From the IMG/VR virus record IMGVR_UViG_3300029267_002792: a stretch of 64,000 nucleotides of DNA. The stretch is one strand, 5' to 3'. This DNA is from a virus. The first letter of the stretch is position 1; the number at the start of each line of letters is the position of its first letter. Positions 1,014-33,032 of this stretch are shown here, one piece after another. The notes beneath the pieces are model-generated. The model saw nothing but the letters and a program-made list of their open reading frames with translations, ran no database searches and was not told where the DNA came from. Both the position numbers and the translations under genes were made by a program.

Positions 1014-1103
1014 CGGTCCATCCCCACGTGTGTGGGGAAACCTTTTCCTGCTGTCCATGCCCTGCAGTATGCGGGGGTCCATCCCCACGCGTGCGGGGAA
1101 ACC
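1014..1103 (-). CRISPR. CRISPR mini-array 1: 2 type I-E-like repeats, 1 spacer (32 nt)
   Basis: 29-bp repeats at 1014-1042 and 1075-1103 (transcribed strand GGTTTCCCCGCACGCGTGGGGATGGACCC); leader and promoter lie to the right. Confidence 0.9.
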
Positions 1104-1227
1104 CCTGTACCGACCTGAGCCAAAAACGGTTTCCAACCACACGCGTGAATTCCTCGTTCGAGACGAGGCAAGAACATCGCGCTTTCGCGCTAATGCCACC
1201 GACTGGAATATCGGCGTTTGATGCATG
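1104..1227 (-). ncRNA. Structured leader / tracrRNA-like scaffold L1
   Basis: H1 CCGAU-AUUCCA-GUCGG (1199-1214), H2 GCGC-GAAA-GCGC, H3 CCUCGU/ACGAGG, anti-repeat 1128-1149. Homologous to L2-L5. Confidence 0.7.
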
Positions 1228-1233
1228 ACTTGA

Positions 1234-1268
1234 AAACTACCAGAAACAGCTCTGAGTGTCAAGAGCAA
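1234..1268 (-). promoter_or_regulatory. sigma70-like phage promoter driving L1/array 1
   Basis: TTGCTCTTGACA-17 bp-TAGTTT (-35 at 1257-1262, -10 at 1234-1239). Confidence 0.8.
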
Positions 1269-1310
1269 TCATCTCAATCCTCCTGAGCGTGCACAACAGC
1301 GGAAAACTCC

Positions 1311-1727
1311 TTAGTACCGGTAGTAATCCGCACTCCGGACTTTAGGCAGCCCACACACGCGCAGGCGCTCCTGATTCCGATCCGTCAAGACGTGACCGGA
1401 ACAGAAACCCCAGAGCAGGTCGAACCTGGCATCGTAGGCTACTACGCGATCGAGACCCGGAACCAGGGCTTTGAAGTGGTCCCACACAAGGCGAAGGGCG
1501 GGGGTGTTGTCCTCAACACTCGGGAACTCGGACGTTCGATAGAACACGAGCCCGAACGCAAACCCGAAGTCACTCTCGACAACGCTGACGGGCACGTGCT
1601 CTGCTTCGACGTGCCTCCATAACTCATCCCACTCCCGCTTGGTGATGGGTCGAGTCACCTCGTCTGCACTCCAAAGCGTTGCGTTCAGGTTCTCAAGCAC
1701 AAGAAAGCTCCTCAGGAATAAAGTCAT
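1311..1727 (-). CDS. hypothetical protein
   Basis: Protein-like composition; start at MTLFLRSF assumed. Confidence 0.45.
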   Translation of the reverse strand: MTLFLRSFLVLENLNATLWSADEVTRPITKREWDELWRHVEAEHVPVSVVESDFGFAFGLVFYRTSEFPSVEDNTPALRLVWDHFKALVPGLDRVVAYDARFDLLWGFCSGHVLTDRNQERLRVCGLPKVRSADYYRY

Positions 1728-2259
1728 GCTTGGTGAACACAACTCGACGTTCAACGCCGGCCTTGGCAAGTGCCTTGTCTGCCCCCTCCAACCGATCAAC
1801 CAGGGCAACGACAGCGACCGGGTCGAGCTTCGCAGCTCTGATCGCCTCAACGGCTCGCACAGCGCTTCCACCAGTCGTGAGCACGTCCTCCACGAGCACG
1901 ACCATGGTTCCCCCTGGAGCCGCGTGCTCCACCTTCTGCAGGGTCCCATGGTCCTTAGATGCCTTCCGCACGATCACCAAATCGGACAGGGCGTGGCCGA
2001 GGAGGCCTGAGTAGAGACACAGAGCAGAAGCGAGCGGGATTCCCCCCACCCCTTCCCCTGCAATGGCCTGAGCGTTGAATTCCTTGACGAGCATCTGCAG
2101 AGCTTGCACGGCTCGCCACAAGCCGTCGCGCTTCAGGAACGTCTGCTTGCAGTCAATGTAGAAGTCGCTGGTCTTGCCGGACGCTAGCGTGAACGTGCCT
2201 CGCTTGTATGAATACGTCTTGAGCAGGTGCAACAGCTGTTGATGTTCTTTCATGTCCAT
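1693..2259 (-). CDS. pyrE: orotate phosphoribosyltransferase
   Basis: FTLASGKTSDFYIDCK, VRKASKDHGT, PRPP-binding motif VVLVEDVLTTGGS. Confidence 0.95.
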   Translation of the reverse strand: MDMKEHQQLLHLLKTYSYKRGTFTLASGKTSDFYIDCKQTFLKRDGLWRAVQALQMLVKEFNAQAIAGEGVGGIPLASALCLYSGLLGHALSDLVIVRKASKDHGTLQKVEHAAPGGTMVVLVEDVLTTGGSAVRAVEAIRAAKLDPVAVVALVDRLEGADKALAKAGVERRVVFTKHDFIPEELSCA

Positions 2260-2260
2260 G

Positions 2261-2866
2261 TCACCTCGGCCACTCAACCTTGCGCAGCGCTGCGAAAGAA
2301 TACCATTTCCCATTCACACGCGCTGTTGCGGACCCCAAATCCACCGACTCTACGACCCCTTCCCATCGAAACACGTCACCGTTGTCAGGGCTGCTTACCC
2401 GGACAACGTCTCCAGCTCGGTACACAACGCGAGCGCTGAACCACTCAACAGCCTCTTCCGGCGTCTGGACGAAAGCGTCCGCCCAGAGATGAACAGGACT
2501 CCGTTCTCCGGCTCGGGGGTGCCCTAGCACGATGGAGAGCTTCCCGCGACCGACGGCGTAGGCCCAATCCGCTGTAGCGTCGATCCCGCACGGGAGGAGC
2601 AGAATGACGCCCGTGCACCGATCGAGAGCTTTCCGGTTCTCCTCAACTGCGCGCCGCCACTCCGGCTGATCGAGGTAGCTGGAGTACACGTGCGACTCCG
2701 GATCGAACTGCTCTGGGAACTTCTCGGGAGGGATCTCCGGAGAGGTGCGACAGTTCGGGTCGGTGAAGTCGTATGCCTTGAACTCGGCCGATCGCAACAG
2801 GTCGGCCAGCTCCCGGACCTTGACCCGGTTCTTCCATGAGGATGAGATGTAGATCAGGGGTTTCAC
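2261..2866 (-). CDS. nucleoside 2-deoxyribosyltransferase-like protein with C-terminal SH3/KOW-like domain
   Basis: IYISSSWKN N-terminus and LDRCTGVILLLPCG..DWAYAVGRGK pattern typical of phage NDT-like proteins; GTG start with GGAGG RBS. Confidence 0.55.
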   Translation of the reverse strand: MKPLIYISSSWKNRVKVRELADLLRSAEFKAYDFTDPNCRTSPEIPPEKFPEQFDPESHVYSSYLDQPEWRRAVEENRKALDRCTGVILLLPCGIDATADWAYAVGRGKLSIVLGHPRAGERSPVHLWADAFVQTPEEAVEWFSARVVYRAGDVVRVSSPDNGDVFRWEGVVESVDLGSATARVNGKWYSFAALRKVEWPR

Positions 2867-3168
2867 AAGTTTTCCTCCCTTTTCGTCCTCAGCATCTCCG
2901 GAGGCAACACACACCGCATCGTCTCTGCCCGGAACCAATCCGTCCAACACTTGAAGCTCTCCCAGTAGTCGCGGTCCCTCTCGTTCGCGAAGTACGTACC
3001 GTCCTTCGCTACGAGAAGTTCGATCGTCAAGGGAGGTGGGCTACCATCCAGCGTGCGAACGCGCCCGCAGTGCTCGCAATGGAACACCTTCGGGTTCTCT
3101 TCCTGCTGTAAGGCAGAGTAACCACACGGACAGGCCAAAATGCGACAGATGCCTTTTCGCACCGTCAT
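2863..3168 (-). CDS. Zn-ribbon hypothetical protein
   Basis: CPCG and CEHCG pairs; coupled to neighbours. Confidence 0.5.
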   Translation of the reverse strand: MTVRKGICRILACPCGYSALQQEENPKVFHCEHCGRVRTLDGSPPPLTIELLVAKDGTYFANERDRDYWESFKCWTDWFRAETMRCVLPPEMLRTKREENL

Positions 3169-3285
3169 TTGAAACACCCTCCCCGACACGTGAGCCGCCC
3201 GCATAGCGGGCAGTGTCCCTCACTGTCGTCGTAGACCGTGAACCAGCGCCCGTCCGGGTCAACATAGACAGTCTCGCCGTCGCGA

Positions 3286-3480
3286 TCATCCTCCACGGCG
3301 CCGCACTCCCTGAGCCTTCAGCTTACGAACGAGATCGGGGTGAACATTGTGCTCCTCACCCCGTTCGACCATGTCCCGCGCAATCTTCTCGATGCACGAG
3401 GGGCAAGCGAGGATACCCTGGTAGACGTCCTCGGTGTAGTCGTCCGGAAGACGACCACTGCAGAACGAGCAGCGTTTCAT
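3286..3480 (-). CDS. small C4 Zn-finger protein
   Basis: CSFC...CPSC; GGAGG RBS. Confidence 0.5.
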   Translation of the reverse strand: MKRCSFCSGRLPDDYTEDVYQGILACPSCIEKIARDMVERGEEHNVHPDLVRKLKAQGVRRRGG

Positions 3481-3482
3481 CC

Positions 3483-4271
3483 TCACGCCTCCGAGTCGTG
3501 CTGGTAGTCTTCGCAGCCGAGAGCGATCTCCGAGCAAAGGTCATCAATGACCTTGAGAGGGTCCTTCGCCGTTCGGATAGGACGCCCCACCACCAGATAC
3601 GTTGCCCCGTCAGCAATCGCCCGCCGAGGCGTGCTGACCCGCTTCTGGTCGTCCTCCGCGCCCCTAGGTGGCCGGATACCTGGGGTGATGATGCAGACGT
3701 CCTCCAGCATGCAGTCGATCAGGGCCACTTCCCGAGGTGAACAAACGAAGTGAGTAACCCCAGCCTCCGTTGCCTCGACAACGAAACGCTCAACAACATT
3801 AGCAGCCGAACCTGAGGCGAAGATCCGCGCAGCGTGACGCTCTCCCGCGTTTCCGGGGTGGTACCAAACCCCACGGCCCTGGAAGATACGAGCCGCATCG
3901 ACGTCGTCCAAGCTCGTAAGGACGGTCACGGCCACGATCTTGGTCTCTGAGCCCTCGGTGGCTCGCACGCACCTCTCGAGAGCCTCCCGGCCCGCGGACG
4001 CGTGCACGGTCAGGAGTTTTACTCCCATATCCACCGCGGCCTTGGTCGCACCCTCCATCGTGTTTGGAATGTCGTTCAGCTTCAGGTCGAGCATGACGGG
4101 AGTAAGGGAGTAATGGTTCGCGTGCTGCACTACGTTGCTCCCCTCCCGCACGAACAGCTCTAACCCTAACTTCGCCATCCCGATCTTTCCGTACAGCTTC
4201 GCCATCCATCCCACGGCCCCGGAAAGGTCCATACCGTCTAGGGGGAAGATGATCCGATCTTTTGGTTTCAT
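3483..4271 (-). CDS. pyrF: orotidine-5'-phosphate decarboxylase
   Basis: KLGLELF, catalytic DLKLNDIPNT, LTVHASAG, TPGIRP, DDQKRVSTP, YLVVGRPI. Confidence 0.95.
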   Translation of the reverse strand: MKPKDRIIFPLDGMDLSGAVGWMAKLYGKIGMAKLGLELFVREGSNVVQHANHYSLTPVMLDLKLNDIPNTMEGATKAAVDMGVKLLTVHASAGREALERCVRATEGSETKIVAVTVLTSLDDVDAARIFQGRGVWYHPGNAGERHAARIFASGSAANVVERFVVEATEAGVTHFVCSPREVALIDCMLEDVCIITPGIRPPRGAEDDQKRVSTPRRAIADGATYLVVGRPIRTAKDPLKVIDDLCSEIALGCEDYQHDSEA

Positions 4272-4627
4272 GGCTCCAACCTCGCACCGCACCAAGGACA
4301 AAACAAAACAGCCTCTCGAAAATGACTACCACGGTTGTACAGATCCAATGCCCACCCGTCCACGTTCGGTCCTTTGATGTGTCCCCGCTGTCTCCACCGT
4401 ATATACAGCTCAGACTCTTTGCAGCACTGGGGCCACTCTCCCGGTTCGTGCCCTGGGACAAGAAGATCTAACCCGGCGTGCTTACGAAGGGCGGTGATCT
4501 CAGCAGGTGTGTAAACTTTACCCACTTTCCCGCTCAGTACGCTCCTCTCGCGCCTACCACGTTCGATCCGCTTGAGAGCCTCTTCTTTGGAAACGGGTTC
4601 GTAGTAGTTATCTCCGTGACCTGCCAT
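4268..4627 (-). CDS. hypothetical protein with C-terminal CPWCG
   Basis: Start at MAGHGD assumed; common phage Zn-ribbon ending. Confidence 0.5.
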   Translation of the reverse strand: MAGHGDNYYEPVSKEEALKRIERGRRERSVLSGKVGKVYTPAEITALRKHAGLDLLVPGHEPGEWPQCCKESELYIRWRQRGHIKGPNVDGWALDLYNRGSHFREAVLFCPWCGARLEP

Positions 4628-4754
4628 GCAGTTACCACCACCACTAAGACTGCAAGTAATGCATGGGCCTGAGCAACACGTGAAAAGGAGCATGGACCCG
4701 TCGTACCACATAGCCGCAGCGTGGTCAATAGCAAACAGATAGGAGGGAGCTTTT

Positions 4755-5618
4755 TCAGCGGTCGCGGCAGATACTGAAATCGTTGCAGTAGCTACCCATC
4801 TCGCACCAAGTCCCGTCACAGCATGCTTCGTCCACGATTCCACACACGCAAATCCCTGAACCACACGAAAAATTCAAGTCGCACCGATCGCCATCGCAGC
4901 ATGCCTCACCATCGCCCCCGCAAAGCTCGCAGGTGTCGGTCAGGCACACGAGGTCGTCGGAGTTGCATCGAGGTGACCCGAGGCAGCACTGCTCACCATC
5001 CTCGCCGCATGGGTCGCACCGCCCACGATCGCAAATGCTCCCGGAGTCACACGCGTTGACCACACAACACCGCTCTCCGTCGCCTCCGCAAGGCTCACAG
5101 GTGCCATTCCAGCAGACGCCGTCAGGGCAGCTCTGCTCGTGGAGATGGTCGTGCACACACCCCGCTCCGCTTGGGCAGGAGTCGATCGTGCAAGGGTTGA
5201 GATCGTCGCAGTCCTCACAGGATTCGCCACCGATGCCGCATCGGACAAGCTCTCCGCCTGGCCAGCAGGTCGAACCGTCCCAGCAGCCCCTGCAAAGCTC
5301 GCCTCCGTAGCACGCGCCGCCACCGTACTGGAACCCGTCGTCCCGGTTGGGGAAGGCACAGACGCCATCCTCGCATTGGTCGCGGGTGCACGGGTTTCCG
5401 TCGTCACACACCTCAGGACAGGTGTCGTCACCGTCGGCATCGCCATCCCCGTCGGCATCGCCATCCCCGTCGGCATCCCCGTCAATGTCACCATCGCCAT
5501 CCGTACTGACCTCAGCGTCCGACCCCGCATCAATCACATTGTGGACCTCCGGATCAGCCTCTCCTTGGCAAGCAACTAGCAAAAGGCCGGTTACCATCAA
5601 AACGACTCGCATGTGCAT
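4755..5618 (-). CDS. Cys-rich lipoprotein with DGDAD linker and myxobacterial-type Cys repeats
   Basis: Lipobox LLVAC, DGDGDIDGDADGDGDAD run, CDDGNPCTRDQC and CDDLNPCTIDSC repeats, repeated CGGDGExCC units. Confidence 0.8.
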   Translation of the reverse strand: MHMRVVLMVTGLLLVACQGEADPEVHNVIDAGSDAEVSTDGDGDIDGDADGDGDADGDGDADGDDTCPEVCDDGNPCTRDQCEDGVCAFPNRDDGFQYGGGACYGGELCRGCWDGSTCWPGGELVRCGIGGESCEDCDDLNPCTIDSCPSGAGCVHDHLHEQSCPDGVCWNGTCEPCGGDGERCCVVNACDSGSICDRGRCDPCGEDGEQCCLGSPRCNSDDLVCLTDTCELCGGDGEACCDGDRCDLNFSCGSGICVCGIVDEACCDGTWCEMGSYCNDFSICRDR

Positions 5619-5635
5619 GACGACTCCTGTTCTTC

Positions 5636-5903
5636 AAATCAAAGGACCCGGCTGCATACCAGCAACCGGGTCCTGTCCAATCTCAATCGTACTTCGGCGG
5701 GAGTACTTAGCGCCGGCCGAGGTCCCATAAACCTCCGGCGCGAGCGCCCGCTCCAGCTCAACCCGAGGCGGCGCACGCGGACGGCGCCATCGGAAGGTCA
5801 CTACGCTACACCCATTCGGGGGAAATGAGTTGCGGAGGACCAAGGAGTGCAGTCGCATCATAACTCGCGCCAACGCTCCCTGAATTAGAACCCCCATCAA
5901 CAT
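5636..5903 (-). ncRNA. candidate structured ncRNA (about 270 nt)
   Basis: Lies between promoter 5910-5937 and a 13-bp hairpin (5643-5674) followed by a T-rich tract; several hairpins; the overlapping ORF is not protein-like. Confidence 0.35.
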
Positions 5904-6280
5904 GATCCAACCATACCAGAACCAGGAGGGGAGTCAAGGGCAAACTTCCGGATTGCTTCTTCCTCCAGCTCTCGCCGGTACTCCTCGACGATCTCCGTGA
6001 TCTCCTCATCCGGAAGGTTCACACACGTGGAGCACATGAAGTTCGGATTGCCCCCACACCTCTCCGGGCACACGAACTCGTCTCGTTTATCCTCCACGAG
6101 CCGCTCTATGCGGTCCTCAGCGGCCTTCCAAGCCTGGCGCCTCTCATACACCTCGAGAACGGTAGGGGCTGTCAGAGCCTGTTTACGGGCTACAGCGCGC
6201 TCCTCGCACAGGCGGGAACAGAACCGTCGCCCTGGTTCGTGCACGAACGCACCGCAGAATAGGCAATGGAATGGTCTCAT
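5897..6280 (-). CDS. Cys-rich hypothetical protein
   Basis: CLFC, CSRLC, CPERC, CSTC motifs. Confidence 0.55.
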   Translation of the reverse strand: MRPFHCLFCGAFVHEPGRRFCSRLCEERAVARKQALTAPTVLEVYERRQAWKAAEDRIERLVEDKRDEFVCPERCGGNPNFMCSTCVNLPDEEITEIVEEYRRELEEEAIRKFALDSPPGSGMVGSC

Positions 6281-6283
6281 GGC

Positions 6284-6880
6284 TCAGCAGATTGAGAAGT
6301 CGGGGTCGGCGACGGGCCAGTTGCCCTGGACCTGACCACATTCCAGGCAGACACTCAATTCCACGTAGTCGCCCCCGCCGAGGTTCGGAATGCCGGGAAA
6401 GTACCCCTCACCCTCATCGCTGCGAAAACGCGTGCAATTCAGATCTGACGACTTCGAGGTAGTCTCGAAGATCCGATCGCTGCCACACCGCTGACACTCT
6501 GCCATCAGCCGCTCCTTTCCGAGACAAGCTTCCTTGCGACCTCCAACCAGACGTCTACGGGAATGCGTGTAATGTCCGGCCCCGGCAAGTCCGGCTGGTA
6601 GACACGCACCTCTGGCCCGCTAATCCCGTCGTCGTAGAGATCAAACACGACGTCCCCAAATAGGTTAGGGATGGTCTTCAAACGGCGCTCTTCAGGCATC
6701 TCGGTTCCTCTTGTAGGCGTACTCGATCAGCTCGGCAGCGGTCAGGTCGTGCACGCGGGCGAGTTGCAACGCTTCCTCCCGCATCGGCTTGCTCATCGAG
6801 CAGAGCGGATGCGTAAGAACCGCCAGCACTCTATTGAGAGCGTGCCTGCGATCGCCATCACGCGACGTCATAGTCCCCAC
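6284..6880 (-). other. three small coupled hypothetical CDS (6284-6505, 6505-6699, 6692-6880)
   Basis: Head-to-tail overlapping ORFs with RBSs; the first has CQRC/CLEC. Confidence 0.55.
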
Positions 6881-7226
6881 CCTCCCACGGTCCCCAGTGT
6901 TTGGTCTGTACCATCTGGACTATCACCTGCTCGGGGGTGTACCGCCGGCAATCTTCGGGAACCACTTCGCCCATGTGGTAGTACAGATCGCGGTGGAGAA
7001 CGACGAACTGGTCGTTCGATAAGTCGACAACCACTACGACGGGTCCGTCATCGATCTCGACCCACGCATGGTCGATGCGCCGGCCTTCCAGCTTCCCCGG
7101 AACCGTCAACTCCCCGTGAACGAGAGTATAACCGTGCGCCTGGTTCACCAGTGCGGCCTCGAAAACGTAGCGGCCATTCGCCACGTAACAATCGCCTGTA
7201 GCCTCAGTTCGATTTCCGCTACCCAT
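6858..7226 (-). CDS. hypothetical protein with putative Cys-His-Asp (papain/transglutaminase-like) triad
   Basis: GDCY, HAWVE and DLS in the expected order; immediately downstream of promoter 7233-7261. Confidence 0.5.
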   Translation of the reverse strand: MGSGNRTEATGDCYVANGRYVFEAALVNQAHGYTLVHGELTVPGKLEGRRIDHAWVEIDDGPVVVVVDLSNDQFVVLHRDLYYHMGEVVPEDCRRYTPEQVIVQMVQTKHWGPWEGGDYDVA

Positions 7227-7284
7227 GACACCACCCTACCGTAGTGGGCGGCGAATGTCAAGAGCAAACGCTAGAAAAGATCGG

Positions 7285-7858
7285 TCAGCGGTTGAGAGTG
7301 CTGCTCAGGGTATTGAGGAGGTGGGTACGCTCCCGTGCAAGCTCCCGAGAGTCGGCAGCAGAGGCCCTCGCGGCTTCGATCTGCGTGAGGCGTGTGAGGG
7401 TGAACTCGATTGCCTCGGCGTGGTTCGCGGGCGGTCGGGGAGGGCGTACTTCCAGGGGAGCGATCATCTGACCTTCTCCGAAGTACGGGCAGGCAGTGTC
7501 ATCATGTCCAGACTCTCCGCACAGTTCACACATCAGCACGCTCCCAGTTAGCTACAGGTGGACACACGTCAGGCACGTCGATGATCCGAGAAATCATCTT
7601 CGCAACCCCGTGCGCGGAGCTGCGATCTTCGTTCGTGCGCTGCATTTTGAAACTCCCGCGGGGCTTCTTCAGGTGCTCGACGACCTCGAACTGGAACTCC
7701 CCGATCACGGACGTGAGCACAGTACCCACGGGTGGGACGATTTTCTCGCCCGAAGCAACGGCCGAGTTTGCCTGGGCGACCAAAACCGTCTTCAGGTAGG
7801 TCTTACCCTCGAACGTGGCGTACGGGCTCCCCATCAATCGCCCGGCCTGCGAACCCAC
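7285..7858 (-). other. two small hypothetical CDS (7285-7539, 7526-about 7834)
   Basis: Coupled ORFs downstream of the amidase. Confidence 0.45.
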
Positions 7859-8631
7859 AGACCGTGGGGAACCCCACCCTCTCGCAGCTCGGTCACTGTC
7901 CGCGGTCCGGGAATGCCGTCGTCCAGCAGCCCTAGCGCGATCTGACGCTGCTTCCAGGCACTCTTGTCCTCGCCCCCTGCAAATGAAAAGTCGTACGCCT
8001 CGTACCCGGCATCCATCAGCATGAGCATGATCCGGTTTCCCGGGTCCCCCTCCCCGCGGTTGGTCGACACGTCCCGGTGACCGAAAACTCCCACCATGTC
8101 CAAGCCCCGACGTAGCCCGCGCTTCAGAGCGCGGTTCTCGTACGGATAGTGGAGCTGCCGCTGAATCGAGAACGTCTTGGTGAGGAAGTCAACGAGCTTC
8201 ACCACGGCTTCGAGCTGACCCTCGTACAGATCAGCGTCCGAACCCTGGTAGATCTCAATTCCGATCGTGACGGCGTTGACATTGCCAGCGTGGAATGGCA
8301 TGTGCCGGTGCACGTCGGCAAGACAGGTCATTGAAGCATCGTGGTCGACGACGATGTGCGCACCGGCCTTGCGATCGTCCATCGACCACATCCGGGCCAT
8401 GCGCTCGTCGCGGCCAGTGTCCGGCCCGAGGCCTCGGCGGATTCTCTGAGGGCGGCGATCCCTGCCGCCTGGAATCCCCTTCGTTGTATGCAGGATGATT
8501 CCTCGCACCCACGTGTTCGGGCGCATCCGATAGTCCCCACTAGACAGTTTGAAGCGCTTGTCGTCGTTCCAGTTGCGGATGTCGAGGTCAGGAACCTCGA
8601 TCTGTGCTCCGTCTATGACCAGTCCTGCCAT
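7834..8631 (-). CDS. N-acetylmuramoyl-L-alanine amidase (Amidase_2) endolysin with C-terminal PG-binding segment
   Basis: IILHTT, AHIVVD, FHAG..N..TIGIE, GHRD Zn motifs; DGIPGPRT PG-binding motif. Confidence 0.85.
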   Translation of the reverse strand: MAGLVIDGAQIEVPDLDIRNWNDDKRFKLSSGDYRMRPNTWVRGIILHTTKGIPGGRDRRPQRIRRGLGPDTGRDERMARMWSMDDRKAGAHIVVDHDASMTCLADVHRHMPFHAGNVNAVTIGIEIYQGSDADLYEGQLEAVVKLVDFLTKTFSIQRQLHYPYENRALKRGLRRGLDMVGVFGHRDVSTNRGEGDPGNRIMLMLMDAGYEAYDFSFAGGEDKSAWKQRQIALGLLDDGIPGPRTVTELREGGVPHGLWVRRPGD

Positions 8632-8645
8632 GAATACCCCCTGCC

Positions 8646-8681
8646 CAAAAAGATTGCGCCCCGCCCCCGAAAGGGCGGGGC
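8646..8681 (-). terminator. intrinsic terminator after tmRNA
   Basis: 9-bp GC hairpin at 8658-8681 followed by AATCTTTTT on the minus strand. Confidence 0.6.
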
Positions 8682-8701
8682 CATGGTGCTGCCAACACCA
8701 G

Positions 8702-9113
8702 TGGAGCTGGCGAGAGTCGAACTCGCGTCCGCGCACCTTCAGTCTGTGGGCTCTCCGTGCTCAGCCGAGCCTTGGCGGTTTAGTCCGCCACTTCACCTCG
8801 TCCTGGGCAGGCTCGGACTTGGACGAGGCTAGACCTTGCGTCATATCTCGTTTGCGAGGGGCTGACGCCGTGGTCATCAGCAAAGCGCCCCCGACGCTCT
8901 TCGGCACGTCGTTCCGCAAACCAACCCGCTGAAATGGCGCCCTGACCCCAAGCCGCAGGTGTGCTCAGGCAGGACGGGAGGTCACGCCGCCAGGCGCTCC
9001 TCCGAGTAGTTGTCAGAGTTGGCAACTGTTTTTTGACCACATTTTTACGGGTGATGATCATCCCCGGCACGCTCCCTCACACGTCTGAGTACCCGTCGAA
9101 ACCTGTCAGCCCC
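8702..9113 (-). ncRNA. ssrA: tmRNA (412 nt), tag (A)ANSDNYSEERLAA
   Basis: 5' GGGGCTGACAGGTTTCGACGGG; 3' T-arm GCGAGTTCGACTCTCGC and CAGCTCCA acceptor with the G3:U70 Ala determinant; tag ORF 9023-8982 ending LAA-stop; own promoter at 9124-9153; CCA not encoded. Confidence 0.95.
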
Positions 9114-9216
9114 AGAAAGTCTTACGGTAGCAAGACGCGCCCAGCGCTGTCAAGAGCTAACGTATGTGGTATGTCCGATTGTCAACGAAATCTCACCTCC
9201 GTCCCTCGGCATCGAC

Positions 9217-9732
9217 CGGTCCATCCCCGCGCGTGCGGGGGACCCCCAACCCAGGAGCAGCCATGACCGCCGAGAAGGGTCCATCCCAGCGCGTGCGGGG
9301 AAACCGGGCGTCGGCCTATGTAGTCCTCGATCCCCCACGGTCCATCCTCGCGCGTGCGGGGAAACCCTCACGTCGGCCATCACGTTTCCGTACCCCTCGG
9401 GTCCATCCTCGCGCGTGCGGGGGAACCTGCGTGCGAATCGACAAAGCCGATCTCGATGAGGGTCCATCCTCGCGCGTGCGGGGGAACCCGGGCCGGAAAG
9501 GGCCTGGGTGTGGAGGTTTTGGGTCCATCCTCGCGCGTGCGGGGGAACCGAATACCAGCCCACCGGGAACGTTGGGTACGTGGGTCCATCCTCGCGCGTG
9601 CGGGGGAACCGCACTGCTTCCAGTGCGAGGAGTCGGGAGACGCGGTCCATCCTCGCGCGTGCGGGGGAACCGTGGTTCTGGCCATCCAGCGCACCTCAGA
9701 CAACGGTCCATCCTCGCGCGTGCGGGGGAACC
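9217..9732 (-). CRISPR. CRISPR array 2: 9 repeats, 8 spacers, directly downstream of tnpB
   Basis: Repeats start at 9217, 9277, 9338, 9399, 9460, 9521, 9582, 9643, 9704 (61-bp period); consensus GGTTCCCCCGCACGCGCGAGGATGGACCS; degenerate copies at the left (trailer) end. Confidence 0.97.
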
Positions 9733-9845
9733 CCTGTGCCGACCTGAGCCATCTCAATCCCCACACACATGAGTTTCCCAGCGCCTACGAAGCAGGCACG
9801 GGGCAGGAGTCCTGAGACCCCTTACCGCGTGGAATCGCGGTAGTC
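9733..9845 (-). ncRNA. scaffold L2 overlapping the tnpB 3' end (omegaRNA-like position)
   Basis: H1 UACCGCG-AUUCCA-CGCGGUA (9823-9842) lies inside the CDS; H3 contains the stop codon; anti-repeat at 9759-9773. Confidence 0.7.
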
Positions 9846-11206
9846 TTCTTCCGGCCCCGAGCCTGCAGGGCCACCCTAATCTTCGGCTCTTTCTTAGCAG
9901 CATAGCCGCCTTCGAGTTTGTAGTCTCCGGCGTGGTACCGCCGCAGGATCTCTCGCGCAGCGTTGATGTCGGCGTTCTCCTCGTGCTCGCACTCCACACA
10001 ACGGAACTTCGACTGTGAGCGACGATTGTCGGCGGACACGTGTCCGCACTTCGGGCAAGTGATCGAGGTGTTCCGGGGCGGCACCTTCACGACCACCCCG
10101 CCCCGCTCCTCCATCTTGTAGCAGAGAATGGACACGAACGCGGACCAGCCCTGCCGCAGGATCGCTCGGTTCAGACCCGCCTTCTGCCGCACGTTCGACC
10201 CGGGCTCTTCTTCGGTACCCTTCGCCGACTTCGTCATGTTCTTGATCTTCAGGTCCTCAATCACCACGACGCCGTAGTTCTCAGCGTAGTACAGAGCTTG
10301 GTGATGCAGCCACTGCCGCCTCATCCGTCGCACGCGAGTGTGCAACTTCGAGATCTGTTCTTGCCCCTTCCGCCAGTTATTAGAACGGGGAACTCCCTTC
10401 TTGTGCGACACGATCTTCCGGTCGTTCGCTGCCTGGAGACGATCGATACGCCGGGCCAGCTTGGCGATGCGGGCCGGGAGTTTGGACATCCGACCGTCGG
10501 AGTCAGCCAGGTTGAGGACGACTCCGCGGTCAATCCCGACAGCGGGCTTGCGAGACTTGCCAGGGTCCGTCACCTCGTACTCGCAGAGGAATGCAACAAA
10601 CCAGGCCGACCCCTCACGAGTGACAGACATACGCTTGACCGTGAAAGCGTCCATTGGACGACCGTCAAAGGGGAGCGCCCGATGAGCAGAGAGAGGGCGG
10701 TGAAGGATGATGTCAATCCAACCCAGCTTCGGGATGAGCACTTGGTGTTGAAGGTCGTTCTTCCGCCTGGGCTTCTCGACCTTCTGGCCTTCTCGCACTA
10801 CCTTGGAAAGGGGAATCGACTTCTCGACCGTCACCGTCATGCCGATCGTATCTCGCATCTTCTTGAACTTCGGCCTTCCCCGAGTTTCATCCTTCACCCA
10901 CATCTTCCAAGCAGCATTGAGATCGCGGAGGACACATTGCTCGCTACGGCACAGCCCCTCCCCTACCCACGGTATACGAGGATTAGAACGCATCTTCGTC
11001 AAGTAGGCCTGCTGCCAGTAGTAATCGGACGGGGGCAAACGCACCCACTGCCAGTCCGTCCCGTTCCAGATCTGTTTGGAGGACAACCGGCGTTGACGAA
11101 GAGCCACGTTCCAGACGAACCGGTGAGTGCGCTCCCACTCCCGCAGGACCTCCTCAATCTCTGGCGTGGGGTAGATTCTGTAGCGATACCCTCGTTGTAC
11201 GATCAT
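9785..11206 (-). CDS. tnpB: TnpB family RNA-guided endonuclease (IS200/IS605 OrfB), 473 aa
   Basis: N-terminal YRYRIYPT HTH; RuvC-I GIDRG, RuvC-II IEDL, CPKC/CVEC Zn finger, RuvC-III NADINAA all intact; SAKGTEEEPGSNVRQKAGLNRAIL motif; no tnpA adjacent. Confidence 0.95.
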   Translation of the reverse strand: MIVQRGYRYRIYPTPEIEEVLREWERTHRFVWNVALRQRRLSSKQIWNGTDWQWVRLPPSDYYWQQAYLTKMRSNPRIPWVGEGLCRSEQCVLRDLNAAWKMWVKDETRGRPKFKKMRDTIGMTVTVEKSIPLSKVVREGQKVEKPRRKNDLQHQVLIPKLGWIDIILHRPLSAHRALPFDGRPMDAFTVKRMSVTREGSAWFVAFLCEYEVTDPGKSRKPAVGIDRGVVLNLADSDGRMSKLPARIAKLARRIDRLQAANDRKIVSHKKGVPRSNNWRKGQEQISKLHTRVRRMRRQWLHHQALYYAENYGVVVIEDLKIKNMTKSAKGTEEEPGSNVRQKAGLNRAILRQGWSAFVSILCYKMEERGGVVVKVPPRNTSITCPKCGHVSADNRRSQSKFRCVECEHEENADINAAREILRRYHAGDYKLEGGYAAKKEPKIRVALQARGRKKTTAIPRGKGSQDSCPVPAS

Positions 11207-11211
11207 GTCCT

Positions 11212-11325
11212 AACCTCCCTAGCGCCCCGAAAAGTACAAACCGTTGCGGGTCCAGTCTCACGCACGCGCAAGTTCCCAGCACCTACTGGCGAAGGGCAAT
11301 TCCCGCGTGGAATCACGGTACACCC
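11212..11325 (-). ncRNA. truncated scaffold L5 fused to a pseudo-repeat and a 32-nt spacer in the tnpB 5' UTR
   Basis: H1 at 11303-11318, anti-repeat at 11261-11272, GCGTGAGACTGGACCC resembling the repeat 3' end (ends 11248), exactly 32 nt, then GGTT (11215-11212). Confidence 0.55.
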
Positions 11326-11378
11326 AACTACATAGCAGAGCGATAGTCAAATGTCAATGGCAATCTTCGGGGAGGGGC

Positions 11379-11834
11379 GGGTCCATCCTCACGCGTGTGG
11401 GAGAACCTCTCCGGCAGAGCCGGCAGGACCGACGATACCCGGTCCATCCCCGCGCGTGCAGGGGAACCTGATCCTCAAGCGTTCGGCTGCGATCGATCGC
11501 GGGTCCATCCCCGCGCGTGCAGGGGAACCTGATCCTCAAGCGTTCGGCTGCGATCGATCGCGGGTCCATCCCCGCGCGTGCGGGAGAACCCCCCACGTCT
11601 TCGCGAGACTGCCCACGTGTCCAGGTCCATCCCCGCGCGTGTGGGGGAGCCGACTGGCCCGAGGAGCTGACAATGACGCCGAGCGGTCCATCCCCGCGCG
11701 TGCAGGGGAACCGGCCAGGCGTCGCGCGCTCACTGGGGGCCGATGGGTCCATCCCCGCGCGTGCGGGGGAACCCGGTCGCTGGCCTACCTGCGTCATGTG
11801 GATGACGGTCCATCCCCGCGCGTGCGGGGGAACC
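11379..11834 (-). CRISPR. CRISPR array 3: 8 repeats, 7 spacers (two identical)
   Basis: Repeats start at 11379, 11440, 11501, 11562, 11623, 11684, 11745, 11806. Confidence 0.97.
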
Positions 11835-11964
11835 CCTGTGCCGGCCTGGGCCAAAAAAAAACGGTTCCCGTAAACACACACGCAGGTTCCTTGCCGCCTC
11901 CGGCAAGGCAAGTGCGCCTCGTAGGGGAGGCGCCATCGACTGGAATGTCGACTCGTTTGACACG
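11835..11964 (-). ncRNA. structured leader scaffold L3
   Basis: H1 UCGAC-AUUCCA-GUCGA (11936-11951), H2 GCGCCUC/GAGGCGC, H3 CCUUGCCG/CGGCAAGG, anti-repeat 11863-11886; promoter TTGACA-17-TAGGTT at 11971-11999. Confidence 0.7.
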
Positions 11965-12016
11965 CCAATGAACCTACCAGGTAACAAGTGGATTGTCAAG
12001 AGAAAAGTTTTCCCGC

Positions 12017-12544
12017 TTATTCGGAGGCGGCGGTGTCGGCGGGCTCGGAGGGCACTACGCCGTCGGGACGTGATCGCTCACCGTGCAGCCGAGCCTCAAC
12101 CAGCCGGGCCAGCTCTTCTTCGGCAATGTTGGGGAGCCCTGACATATCGAGCTGCTGCTGCACGAAGTCAACCGCCGACTGCAGCTTCTGAGCACTCTCG
12201 GTCTTGACCTTGTCAGTCCTGAGCGCCTTGCGCGCCTGCTCTTCAGCAAAGGCTACCCCGGCCTGAATCATGTTCTGTGTCAGGCGGACCGTGGCCTCTT
12301 GTTTCTCCGCGTCCCACTTCTTCGTGAGTTTGCGTACGACCCAGCTACCGAGCACGCCGAGAATGGCCGTGACAAGGGGAGCCGAGATCTGGACCAGGAA
12401 GTCGAGCAGGACCATCCACCACGCCTGCGCCTGATCGGCCACGTTCAAGTTCACGTCCACGGGCGGACATGGCTGAGCAAGCACCAGCGATGGAAGTAGG
12501 AAAGCGCTAAGGAACGCCGTGACAATCAGAAATTTCTTCATCAA
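12017..12544 (-). CDS. putative holin (LL-H-like) membrane protein
   Basis: N-terminal hydrophobic signal, a second TM segment, then AGVAFAEEQ...KLQSAVDFVQQQL...LVEARL, resembling LL-H family holins. Confidence 0.55.
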   Translation of the reverse strand: MMKKFLIVTAFLSAFLLPSLVLAQPCPPVDVNLNVADQAQAWWMVLLDFLVQISAPLVTAILGVLGSWVVRKLTKKWDAEKQEATVRLTQNMIQAGVAFAEEQARKALRTDKVKTESAQKLQSAVDFVQQQLDMSGLPNIAEEELARLVEARLHGERSRPDGVVPSEPADTAASE

Positions 12545-12622
12545 ACCCTCCGTCTAGAATCGCAAAAGCATATCATGGAGGGCGTACCTCGGAAATCTAC
12601 AGAACAAACGCCTGCACCTGAA

Positions 12623-12956
12623 GGGTCCATCCTCACGCATGCGGGGGAACCGCCGAGATCAGCCATTTCCGTTGCGATGCACTCGGTCCATCCCCACGCG
12701 TGCGGGGGAGCCTCGTAGCCGTTCCCGCGCTTCCGCACGACGATGGGTCCATCCCCACGCGTGCGGGGAAACCTCTCTCATGGGAGCTTGCTCGCGCTCC
12801 CCCTGGGGTCCATCCCCGCGCGTGCGGGAGAACCCCCAGACACGGCGGTGATGACTCGTACGATGACGGTCCATCCCCACGCGTGCGGGGGAACCCCGGG
12901 ACGATCTCATCGCATCCGTAGATGAAGGGGTCCATCCCCGCGCGTGCGGGGGAACC
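12623..12956 (-). CRISPR. CRISPR array 4: 6 repeats, 5 spacers
   Basis: Repeats start at 12623, 12684, 12745, 12806, 12867, 12928. Confidence 0.96.
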
Positions 12957-13074
12957 CCTGTGCCACGCTAAGCCAATCCCCTCCACACACACGCGAGTTC
13001 CTCGCTCAAGGCGAGGCAAGAGCATCACGCTTTCGCGATCTGCCACCGACTGGAATATCGGCATTTGATTCACG
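12957..13074 (-). ncRNA. structured leader scaffold L4
   Basis: H1 at 13046-13061, H2 CGC-GAAA-GCG, H3 CCUCGC/GCGAGG, anti-repeat 12983-12997; promoter TTGACA-17-TAATCT at 13081-13109. Confidence 0.7.
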
Positions 13075-13124
13075 CTCTGGAGATTACCAGCAAGAGGTGC
13101 GATTGTCAAGAGCAATCGACACCT

Positions 13125-25448: not shown

Positions 25449-26360
25449 CTACGCCCCCTTCTTCTTCGCGGGGGCGGCCTTGGCAGTCTTCACAACGTCC
25501 GACAGACCACTGATCGACTTCGCATCGCGAAGCCCGATGGCGAACGCTACGCCAGCCACAAAATCCTCGGACAGAACATCCTCGTGCACCTGCCGCTTCT
25601 CGACGATGTACCGGAGCACCTTCTTAGGGGGAGCGATGCTCGGATCTTGACCTTTCGCCCGCTTCGCCGCCTTCGCCGTGTCCTTCGCTGTAGGAGGCTT
25701 CCCCGTCTCTTTGCTCGCTTCCATGAGAATGTCGAGCTGTGTCTTCTGCTCAGTCGGAGGGAGAGTGTGGAGCTGTGCGGCAGCACTGGCCGACACCTTG
25801 CCCGCCTCCACCGCCTGCTTTACGGACTCACTGAGCGACAGCATCTGAGACCAGACCGTGATCGACTTAGGTGTGACACCAAAAGCCATGGCGATCTCTT
25901 CTGCGGTGAGGCCCCGATCCTTCAAGCGCTGAGCTTTCCGGGCCTTCACCAGCAGAGTATCAGCGTGGTTGAACTCGTTCGTGCTGATCCCGATCAGCAT
26001 ATGCAGCTGCTCTTCGCCACCCTGCTGAACAACCGGAACACGAATCGGTGGCTCGCCCACCTGAATTAGTCGCTTGTTCGCGGCCCGAGCGGCGCGCACC
26101 CGCTGCCGCCCGTCGATTACATACCCCTTGCCATCGATCTTGGTTATGAGAACATTCTTCTTCACCCCCAGCGTCATCACGTTGAGAATGAACTCCTCGC
26201 TCAGCGGCAGCTTCACGCGCTCGTCGTAGAGGTGGTGAACGTTCCCGTCACTGTCACGACCGGGCACATCATTAGGCCCATCGCCGCCCACGATGACCAG
26301 CTTCTCAGGCTCCAAATGAAACCCGTGAAGCCGTGGTCCGGAAAACGCCTGTCCTCCCAT
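25449..26360 (-). CDS. ParB/Spo0J-like N-terminal domain protein with HTH
   Basis: YDERVKLP, VIDGRQRVRAA, EEIAMAFGVTPKSITVW HTH. Confidence 0.8.
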   Translation of the reverse strand: MGGQAFSGPRLHGFHLEPEKLVIVGGDGPNDVPGRDSDGNVHHLYDERVKLPLSEEFILNVMTLGVKKNVLITKIDGKGYVIDGRQRVRAARAANKRLIQVGEPPIRVPVVQQGGEEQLHMLIGISTNEFNHADTLLVKARKAQRLKDRGLTAEEIAMAFGVTPKSITVWSQMLSLSESVKQAVEAGKVSASAAAQLHTLPPTEQKTQLDILMEASKETGKPPTAKDTAKAAKRAKGQDPSIAPPKKVLRYIVEKRQVHEDVLSEDFVAGVAFAIGLRDAKSISGLSDVVKTAKAAPAKKKGA

Positions 26361-27420: not shown

Positions 27421-27807
27421 TCATCCAGTCTGCGATTCTGACGGCTCGTGAGCTTCTCTCAAAGCAAGCGGGAGTGACGAGAGCAGCCGCTCAGCGTCGG
27501 GGCCAAACGCAATGGCGGTGACTGCGCCATTCGCTACCCCCGGCTCGGAAAACTCGGACATGGTGAGGTTCCGAGCACGAGCGCGCTCAGCCAGGGCTGT
27601 GATGTCTTCGCCGTCGATCTCGAGGAGCACGATGGTGTTGGACTCCCTGTACCAGCGGTCTTCAATGTAGGGATGCTCCGAGGCAAAACGGCGTAGGGCG
27701 TGGAACATCTGAGCGACGCGCAGTCCTGGGGGAAGATCGTGCCTCCCCACCACGAATAGTTTGGCATATGCCGCAGCATGGGCTCGAACCATGTCCTCCC
27801 GGCTCAT
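27421..27807 (-). CDS. peptidyl-tRNA hydrolase type 2 (PTH2)-like protein
   Basis: KLFVVGRHDLPPGLRVAQMFHA, TIVLLE, FSEPGVANGAVTAIAFGP, LSSLPL match the PTH2 fold pattern. Confidence 0.7.
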   Translation of the reverse strand: MSREDMVRAHAAAYAKLFVVGRHDLPPGLRVAQMFHALRRFASEHPYIEDRWYRESNTIVLLEIDGEDITALAERARARNLTMSEFSEPGVANGAVTAIAFGPDAERLLSSLPLALREAHEPSESQTG

Positions 27808-27845
27808 TAGACCGGGTGTGCCACCAGGAACACCTCTGCGGCGGG

Positions 27846-27920
27846 CTCGTGGGGATGGACTTGAACCACCAGCCTCCCGGACTCGAGAGTCCAGGCGCTC
27901 TACCATTGAGCTACCCACGA
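27846..27920 (-). tRNA. tRNA-like RNA with enlarged anticodon arm (6-bp stem + 8-nt loop CUCUCGAG); identity undetermined
   Basis: UCGUGGG/CCCACGA acceptor + G73; D-arm GCUC-AAUGGUA-GAGC; T-arm GGUGG-UUCAAGU-CCAUC; anticodon arm 3 nt too long; no CCA. Confidence 0.75.
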
Positions 27921-28326
27921 ATAGAACTCCGCAACGTACGGATACGCGGCGGGGATTGATCACCATGTCAGGCTGCAATGCGGGAAGGCCCTCGGGGGGC
28001 TGACTGTCAATGACTGGAGTGGCGAGTCATGGGATTAGCCTAAACCATCCTGAGCCTCTGTCAAGAGCCCTCGGAAAAGATTTCCCCGTCTCTCCACACA
28101 GCAGCTGACACAAGGTCGAGGTTGTGAGGGTCCGTAAGCACGGAGATCCGCTTTCGCGTCTCGAACTGTGCAGCATGCGCCCCGCAGAGCGCGATCTCAC
28201 CCACAACGTAGCCACGGAACGGCGGCGTCATCACCCAAGCCTCGCATGCGTACTCTGGGGAACGAGTGCAATCCTCGGCCTGACAGACCGCGGGAACGGG
28301 GTCCTTGTCGAACATGATCGGGTGAA

Positions 28327-31709: not shown

Positions 31710-33032
31710 TTAGCGAGCAGCCTGCTCCAGCTCGTCCAGACGAGACTGGGGAGCCTCCAGACCAGAAATGATCGTAAAGACCCGCATCGATACCCGACCC
31801 TTCGATTCGTAAATCCCGTTGTGAAGCGTGATGCCCTCGTTCCCCAGCGCCCGACCGAGGCTGTTGAACGAGTAGTCAATGTTCTCCATCGGAATCTGGC
31901 TCAGGATCTCGTCGTGGGCGAGGACGATGGCACCGGCCATGTCTGCCTTGCTCAGATCGAAGCCGTCAGCGAGCAGGGTGCCTTTGAGGTTCTGGCGCAC
32001 CGCCTTCGAGATGTCTTCCTTCCCCTGCCACTTGTCCACACGCGTCATGCCGAAGACCATCAAGCCGTTCTGCACGACACTACGGAAGTCCGCTCGGTCG
32101 AACGTGTTGTAGTCGCTGTCCTTGGCGGCCAGGAGATTGAAGGTGTGCAACACCCCGGCGAAGTTCCGGTTCGCCGTCTGCCAGAATTTCTTCACCGGAA
32201 GCCCGGGGTACAGCTCATGGATCTTCGCGTTGTCGACGATGATGAGGGACGCGATCTTCCCGCTCTCCAACTTCTTCAGCGCATCGGTGATGGCTGTGTG
32301 CGCATTGCGCTGGACTCGTGAGCCCTCAGAGCGCTTCGGCAGGCTCATAATCACACCGAGGTGCTTGTAGAAGGGCTTCTCGATGTTGGTGGACTTGGCG
32401 TACTCACGTGCGGCGTCGAGCAGCACCGGCCACGACCCCGTACCTGATCCGCCCCCTCCGCCGACACAAATGTAGACGTGCTCCACCCCCTCGCCCCACG
32501 ACCGCATCATGAGATCCATGATGTCTTCGTAGGACTCCTGGGCCGCAAGCTTCCCCTCCTCGGGGTCCTTGCCAGCACCACCACGATCGTTGCCGATGAC
32601 GAGCTGATGCGGGATGGTGAGAGCTGCCATGTCCTGTGGAGTGGTGTTGCACACGCATACGCGCCGGTAGCCCATGTCGTAGAAGGCCTGAGCAATACGA
32701 CCGCCTCCTTGACCCGCGCCAATGAAAGCCATCTTGATAGCTGAGCGAGTCTCCCCGCCAGCGAAGTCGTCCTCGACCTCCCGAGAACCATCGAAAGAAG
32801 CTTCGTATTCGGCGCCGAAGTCTGGAATGTCGACGCCACCGCCCGCATCGTCTAGCGGATCAATGTCGGCCCCCTGGAACCGGCGCCGCATCGCGACTGC
32901 GTCCACATCGCGGTTGGCTGCAACGTTCTTCGCTGCTTTCGCTGGCGAGGCCTCCCGCGGCACCGCGGGCAGCTCGTCGTAGAGGGGATCTCCGCCATCG
33001 TCAACGGGTTGACTCTTCGGTTGCTTCGCCAT
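31710..33032 (-). CDS. tubulin/FtsZ-family GTPase with acidic N-terminal extension
   Basis: IGAGQGGGRIA, GGAGKDPEEG, signature GGGGGSGTG, IIVDN, T7-like FDRADF. Confidence 0.9.
   Translation of the reverse strand: MAKQPKSQPVDDGGDPLYDELPAVPREASPAKAAKNVAANRDVDAVAMRRRFQGADIDPLDDAGGGVDIPDFGAEYEASFDGSREVEDDFAGGETRSAIKMAFIGAGQGGGRIAQAFYDMGYRRVCVCNTTPQDMAALTIPHQLVIGNDRGGAGKDPEEGKLAAQESYEDIMDLMMRSWGEGVEHVYICVGGGGGSGTGSWPVLLDAAREYAKSTNIEKPFYKHLGVIMSLPKRSEGSRVQRNAHTAITDALKKLESGKIASLIIVDNAKIHELYPGLPVKKFWQTANRNFAGVLHTFNLLAAKDSDYNTFDRADFRSVVQNGLMVFGMTRVDKWQGKEDISKAVRQNLKGTLLADGFDLSKADMAGAIVLAHDEILSQIPMENIDYSFNSLGRALGNEGITLHNGIYESKGRVSMRVFTIISGLEAPQSRLDELEQAAR

Follow-up and report, generated by a model that had tools for sequence, protein, structure and literature searches.

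Transitions from TnpB to Cas12 are frequent, with about 50 recognised (PMC12669027), so a TnpB-derived CRISPR system is not a new class in itself. The closest described examples include TranC, presented in two reports as transposon-CRISPR intermediates (PMC13639567; bioRxiv 10.64898/2026.03.27.714800), and the V-U* groups (PMC10691335). The origin of type V arrays has been left open between duplication of an omegaRNA segment and takeover of existing arrays by TnpB (PMC10691335). Here we consider a 64,000-nucleotide stretch, the window, of the virus record IMGVR_UViG_3300029267_002792, in which a phage tnpB gene lies among four small arrays and five copies of a structured leader RNA. Each leader is very probably a miniaturised TnpB omegaRNA scaffold, serving as a cis-encoded trans-activating CRISPR RNA (tracrRNA) for the phage TnpB.

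Leader copies and their pairing with the repeat

An earlier reading made from the nucleotides only (the sequence-only reading) had singled out the leaders as sets of three hairpins, H1 to H3. The five sets are where it placed them, with every quoted H1 and H3 stem present. All lie on the minus strand, with loops at 1204-1209, 9830-9835, 11308-11313, 11941-11946 and 13051-13056, among the following features:

1015-1103, minus strand: array 1, 2 type I-E-like repeats and 1 spacer
1129-1216, minus strand: scaffold before array 1; H1 1197-1216 (loop 1204-1209), H2 1174-1196, H3 1152-1168, anti-repeat ~1129-1148
1234-1262, minus strand: promoter-like motif of the array 1 scaffold; -35 at 1257-1262, 17-nt spacer, phage-wide family (D3)
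9218-9732, minus strand: array 2, 9 repeats and 8 spacers, 61-bp period
9754-9842, minus strand: scaffold overlapping the tnpB 3' end; H1 9823-9842 (loop 9830-9835), H2 9805-9822, H3 9777-9803, anti-repeat ~9754-9773
9785-11206, minus strand: TnpB, 473 aa, between arrays 2 and 3; its C-terminal tail, of low confidence, overlaps the scaffold
11207-11318, minus strand: solo scaffold in the tnpB 5' leader; H1 11303-11318, vestigial H2, short H3, anti-repeat ~11252-11271
11329-11357, minus strand: weaker promoter-like motif of the family, before the solo scaffold and tnpB
11380-11834, minus strand: array 3, 8 repeats and 7 spacers (two identical)
11866-11952, minus strand: scaffold before array 3; H1 11935-11952 (loop 11941-11946), H2 11914-11933, H3 11889-11908, anti-repeat ~11866-11885
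11971-11999, minus strand: promoter-like motif of the family, array 3 scaffold
12624-12956, minus strand: array 4, 6 repeats and 5 spacers
12977-13062, minus strand: scaffold before array 4; H1 13045-13062 (loop 13051-13056), H2 13021-13044, H3 13000-13016, anti-repeat ~12977-12996
13081-13109, minus strand: promoter-like motif of the family, array 4 scaffold

The window has five AUUCCA loops closed by stems of 5 bp or longer, against a mean of 0.18 (maximum 2) in 60 Markov-simulated windows. The covariance-model check that the sequence-only reading had proposed, run with a model built from the window copies together with homologous ones, brings up no sixth one in the window (next match E=0.45); a sixth scaffold, with its repeat, lies just past the window start (L034:21279; loci used for comparison carry L numbers). 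DNA pattern scans for additional leaders returned nothing or chance-level matches, and the leaders have no Rfam match at gathering score (best E=0.96). Several details of the initial description need adjustment. The interval from loop to first repeat, given as 95-107 nt, is 94-106 nt from the loop end under a 28-nt repeat definition. The GGAA reported after H3 is present, but its GG is the closing pair of H3 and AA alone is single-stranded. H2 keeps its position except in the solo copy, where it is vestigial, and the loop is invariant within the window genome but reads AUACCA in L027 and GUUCCA in L028 and L032b.

Folded together with the first repeat, the four array copies are more stable than their shuffles (z -2.2 to -4.0), whereas the solo copy is not (z +0.46). 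In the minimum-energy structure, H1, H2 and H3 are followed by a long helix of anti-repeat and repeat, and the 3' tail is left free. This fourth helix goes beyond the three hairpins described earlier: an anti-repeat directly after H3 pairs, in a single fixed register, with the 5' two-thirds of the repeat. Across 16 aligned sequences from nine genomes, H1 is paired in 100% of cases, H3 in 85% and the anti-repeat:repeat helix in 88%, and in this last helix 6 of the 11 pairs have changed on both sides, that is, in compensatory fashion. Sliding the anti-repeat and repeat partners lowers pairing from 91.5% to 30-47%. Cognate anti-repeat and repeat combinations outperform swapped ones (21, 5 or 58 of 40320 permutations, depending on the window copy used; p ~0.001), and in each of the 11 cases the hairpin that the repeat forms by itself is less stable than the duplex. 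The fit of the anti-repeat is to the consensus of the array and not to the first repeat alone.

A second contact joins the H1 loop to the 3' end of the repeat. This pseudoknot is paired in 100% of the sequences, UCCA facing UGGA, with one compensatory change in L027 (ACCA with UGGU); aligned by hand, L200 would make this contact between loop CCG and repeat CGG, and L117 between loop AUCA and repeat UGGU. Pairing of the H1 loop with the GGAA after H3 was considered and rejected, because the G's close H3 and because L027 alters both loop and repeat end yet keeps GGAAC. Covariation over the 16 sequences thus supports the selected fold that the sequence-only reading had proposed; its suggestion of an RNA that binds a protein had left partner and role open.

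Behind the solo scaffold come a 3' end resembling that of a repeat, then 33 nt, then the four bases that begin a repeat, beside the tnpB ribosome-binding site. The copy may represent a cassette in decay, a scaffold acting in trans or a guide in one piece; the 33 nt behind it gave no target match. In the upstream cassette of L032 (9753-9990), whose first spacer is only ~12 nt long, the end likewise falls at the ribosome-binding site of tnpB. A 9-mer and a nearby 6-mer are common to L027:544-560, upstream of the tnpB promoter, and window positions 11229-11245, within the 33-nt segment.

A promoter-like family found throughout the phage, TTGACA with a 17-nt spacer, precedes four scaffold copies, weakly in the case of the solo copy, and the fifth overlaps the last tnpB codons. 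The three promoters that had been assigned to individual copies belong to this motif family but do not pass a generic sigma-70 scan.

The four arrays have 28/29-bp palindromic repeats with a 61-bp period. Exact matches to the repeat occur in bacterial arrays of L201, beside cas7e, cas5e, cas6e-like and cas1e genes, and of L202; in these arrays the period is the same and the last base likewise variable. With its palindrome, its period and its occurrence beside I-E cas genes, the window repeat is, by sequence match, a host-type I-E repeat. The ~20 bp ahead of the first repeats (window 9733-9750 and equivalents) are conserved across the group and loosely resemble the I-E leader ends of L201 and L202; they are possibly a DNA signal for Cas1-Cas2. 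The two identical spacers of array 3 are consecutive (11469-11562). No protospacer was found in the window or the examined loci (best 25/32, chance level), in GenBank phages (spacers of arrays 3-4) or in five IMG/VR records, and exact 20-mer scans of viral contigs with two leader-proximal spacers gave no target.

The TnpB group and the omegaRNA

The window protein carries the HTH, OrfB and TNB set of Pfam domains and scores 249 bits against NCBIfam guided_TnpB (cut-off 100). RuvC residues D226, E317 and D413 and four zinc-finger cysteines are invariant across 11 members of its group. Its predicted structure aligns with 8H1J over 350 residues (Z 22.9, root-mean-square deviation 6.5), and by homology the protein is assigned to the TnpB family of nucleases. 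The pLDDT score (predicted local distance difference test) is below 50 at residues 435-473, a disordered tail that lies over the scaffold RNA region. The closest homologues share 45-57% identity and belong to a small group of 430-540 aa proteins, defined here by 45-100% identity and represented by nine genomes with readable DNA, the window genome included.

In the eight other genomes (L025, L027, L028, L030, L031, L032, L167 and L168), the scaffold lies at the tnpB stop or just behind it, and an I-E-type array comes next. A 61-bp array is readable in eight of the nine genomes, L028 ending inside the anti-repeat. As in the window, a second scaffold-array cassette stands directly upstream of tnpB in L030, L031, L032 and L167. 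The scaffold model has no match at E<0.6 in about 165 other loci, mostly TnpB loci of at most 42% identity, with host I-E leaders and other phage I-E mini-arrays besides; as judged by the model, the scaffold is linked exclusively to this TnpB group among the loci examined. In a quick-method tree, built without Cas12n sequences, monophyly of the nine is weakly supported (44) inside a group of 15 rows at 92. Other anti-defence genes, Acb5 and Acb2, occur nearby in relatives.

Ordinary IS605 omegaRNAs of the outgroup loci run from stem 1 through a GCCUG...CAGGAAC core, a hairpin and stem 4 to a terminal UGUC before the guide. Of their 49 distinct ends, 38 combine a stem-1 loop of GACA or GGCA (GACT in one) with UGUC or AGUC opposite it at the terminus. 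The scaffold appears to map onto this order part by part, H1 corresponding to stem 1, H3 to a shortened core (the resemblance is seen in L027, L030 and L032), and the anti-repeat with the repeat to a rebuilt stem 4. The repeat end would replace the transposon end, with a re-tuned pseudoknot whose position matches GACA/UGUC of ordinary IS605 omegaRNAs. A stem-1-loop pseudoknot combined with a terminal repeat:anti-repeat stem is the same topology as in ISDra2 TnpB (PMC10097598) and RdCas12n (PMC12216341).

Two loci in the same 98%-supported branch of the quick tree, L036 and L074, combine I-E-like arrays and anti-repeats with a fuller omegaRNA core, which means that repeat capture may be old or repeated. 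We tentatively propose, with rather less than even confidence, that an undescribed and ancient phage TnpB branch became type V by capturing a whole host I-E repeat instead of duplicating its own omegaRNA end. By its likeness to the omegaRNA end, the repeat end would have been pre-adapted, and the H1 loop would have been re-tuned for each repeat variant. The group would preserve a series from the full core (L036, L074) to a minimal one of ~70 nt, the outcome being a very compact nuclease that host Cas1-Cas2 supplies. Arrays of 61-62 bp period and I-E-like repeats occur at farther TnpB loci (L036:1492-1720, L074:6364-6720, L117:9250-9420, L155:9230-9440). Anti-repeats and a fuller core are seen in L036, L074 and L117, with three tandem core copies in L074 and half a repeat fused to the scaffold in L117. 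At L200:3767-4050, beside a sister TnpB (P0123), stands a reduced scaffold with changed loop and repeat end and no clear anti-repeat, which the model missed.

The window is part of a 193,864-bp metagenomic phage contig, with identical protein and DNA in L033, and its genes run on the minus strand. Phage hallmarks of the contig are a holin, an amidase, a tail protein, a TubZ-like tubulin, transfer-messenger RNA (tmRNA) and tRNAs. Among the 84 open reading frames (ORFs) of the window, 64 of ~194 kb, no cas genes (Cascade, cas3, cas1, cas2) and no transposase, tnpA or Y1 included, were found; tnpA and transposon ends around tnpB, which would mark an active IS200/IS605 element, are absent from the window. 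A complete tmRNA with its own promoter motif (8699-9113, minus strand) directly follows array 2. Elsewhere in the window are two neighbouring tRNA-like genes (27769-27921, minus strand), one called with a four-base anticodon, the Tubulin/TubZ-like protein (31710-33032, minus strand), a ParB-HTH protein (25449-26360), and pyrE- and pyrF-like genes (1693-4301, minus strand). Array 1 is followed by a gene of 239 aa that looks vWA-like by eye and has no Pfam match, and two relatives (L031:12042-13646, L168:1251-2870) have a Ro60 (vWA) gene behind the TnpB array. L210, a 437-kb phage, has several scattered I-E mini-arrays without the scaffold of the TnpB group.

A possible guide pathway and its alternatives

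In the favoured reading, a phage promoter or read-through from tnpB would transcribe a scaffold with its array. H1, H2 and H3 would fold and the anti-repeat would pair with the 5' two-thirds of the repeat in place of omegaRNA stem 4, as covariation supports; the freed repeat end UGGA would then form the pseudoknot with the H1 loop UCCA just before the spacer. By these pairings, leader, first repeat and first spacer would make up a natural single guide. The repeats of later spacers may be paired by the scaffold in trans as dual guides, out-competing the hairpin required by Cas6e, with TnpB or host RNases doing the trimming. We infer from homology, together with the strict co-occurrence, that TnpB binds this RNA; it would cut DNA that matches the initial portion of the spacer and adjoins a short motif compatible with the protospacer-adjacent motif of host I-E systems. 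New spacers would be added by host type I-E Cas1-Cas2, because the repeat is of I-E type, the period is 61 bp with a 28+33 register, and the window lacks cas1 and cas2. The likely targets would be competing phages or mobile elements.

Several observations weigh against this reading. Within the group, covariation of the pseudoknot amounts to one event (L027), the changes in L200 and L117 being hand-aligned, and the shuffle and permutation controls ignore the relatedness of the sequences. The window's second scaffold has a weaker and less specific anti-repeat. Between pseudoknot and guide lie 2-3 nt, compared with ~2 in omegaRNAs. The hairpin retained in the repeats could be cut by host Cas6e, and some of the crRNA (CRISPR RNA) may therefore go to host Cascade. 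No protospacer was recovered for the window spacers in the sets searched.

The retained hairpin suits an alternative in which host I-E Cascade uses these cas-less mini-arrays, with the leader fold serving stability or processing and TnpB playing no part. Authentic I-E repeats, scaffold-free mini-arrays on another phage (L210) and three cassettes with their own promoter motif away from tnpB agree with it. It is nevertheless highly improbable, as the scaffold accompanies this TnpB group alone among the loci examined and, in the manner of an omegaRNA, runs over the 3' end of tnpB, H3 and the loop resemble omegaRNA parts, and anti-repeat pairing destroys the very hairpin that Cas6e requires. Slightly less credit is due to decoy RNAs, comparable to RNA anti-CRISPRs, that would soak up host Cas6e or Cascade, or pair with host crRNA repeats, and so block I-E immunity. 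The anti-repeat could indeed pair with host pre-crRNA, given its complementarity to host-type repeats, and anti-defence genes (Acb5, Acb2) lie nearby in relatives; such decoys would account neither for an omegaRNA-like core and a pseudoknot nor for the strict linkage with TnpB and the unique spacers at a fixed 61-bp period. Such interference may still be a side effect beside the main role. The slimmest chance of all belongs to the possibility, raised in the sequence-only reading as a refutation, that the hairpins are insertion sequence ends of IS200/IS605 recognised by TnpA as single-stranded DNA. TnpB genes do derive from IS200/IS605, where omegaRNA and right end overlap. This interpretation is disfavoured because no Y1 transposase was found among the 84 window ORFs, the copies follow promoter motifs away from any element end, and the repeat pairings, whose covariation plays no part in transposition, suit a guide RNA; moreover, the terminal motif of outgroup elements is here replaced by the repeat.

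More credible, while still unlikely, is a sub-case of the favoured reading that departs from it in the handling of later spacers alone. Only the cis unit of scaffold, first repeat and newest spacer would load TnpB, or TnpB would bind without cutting; later spacers would go to host Cascade or to storage, and cassette duplication would be the phage's way of multiplying active guides. A scaffold for each array, which a trans-acting tracrRNA would not need, agrees with this, as do the single spacer of array 1, the cis fold as minimum-energy structure and the resemblance of the solo copy to a one-piece guide. Against it, the anti-repeat fits the array consensus and not just the first repeat, the RuvC residues are invariant, and the same layout works in trans in Cas12n and Cas12f (PMC12216341, PMC10097598).

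Comparison with known systems

If the favoured reading is true, the locus is a case of a transposon enzyme turned CRISPR system through a borrowed host repeat. The group makes the capture route to type V arrays directly testable: its I-E repeat is identical to that of hosts, and the scaffold is adapted base by base to each variant, pseudoknot included. It also offers a family of 430-540 aa nucleases whose scaffold ranks among the smallest natural ones, and a model for how a phage may pair host adaptation with its own effector.

Among IS605-family relatives, ISDra2 TnpB (8H1J; PMC10097598) shares the protein fold, an RNA at the gene 3' end and a guide-adjacent stem-1-loop pseudoknot, and the outgroup shares the core motif. 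Unlike an IS605 omegaRNA, the scaffold has lost one internal hairpin, and a CRISPR repeat supplies the 3' strand of stem 4 and the pseudoknot strand. Unlike an IS605 element, the window has no tnpA or element ends, and the guides are array spacers.

Cas12r of Thermus Lalka phages (bioRxiv 10.64898/2026.04.20.719267) also has an I-E-like repeat. However, Cas12r is a protein of 564 aa encoded 15 bp from the first repeat, and it uses crRNA only, with no tracrRNA, whereas all members of the present group have a conserved scaffold and anti-repeat between gene and array. By this arrangement, the system is not Cas12r.

In Cas12n (V-N, V-U4; RdCas12n PDB 9J09; PMC12216341), the tracrRNA overlaps the ORF 3' end with a disordered tail, as does the scaffold at 9754-9842, which overlaps the ORF end at 9785 (pLDDT <50, residues 435-473), and both have the stem-1-loop pseudoknot with the repeat 3' end and the terminal repeat:anti-repeat helix. 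RdCas12n is the best natural PDB sequence match to the window TnpB (E 2e-23), although distant and partial (residues 128-424). In contrast to Cas12n, the window protein finds its best alignment with plain TnpB, at Z 22.9 where the resolved part of RdCas12n reaches 13.4, its scaffold is less than half of the 194-nt RdCas12n scaffold, and the system is phage-borne with multiple cassettes.

As in TranC and the V-U* groups, a TnpB-sized nuclease without extra domains has an array downstream of its gene, and the TnpB-like effector is stably linked to the array across the clade (eight of nine genomes). Also alike are the division of the omegaRNA into tracrRNA and crRNA roles, the lack of adaptation genes and the existence of phage examples (CauTranC9); here, covariation and homology point to an omegaRNA-derived tracrRNA that pairs with the repeat through anti-repeat and pseudoknot. 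The repeats of TranC are given as 32-38 bp and of unknown subtype in the preprint (bioRxiv 10.64898/2026.03.27.714800), as opposed to the 28/29-bp host-type I-E repeats with a 61-bp period found here. A further difference from TranC is a scaffold core of ~65-85 nt, duplicated before every array. By analogy, the system would work like TranC, Cas12n and Cas12f, its twist being a host-type repeat and one scaffold per mini-array.

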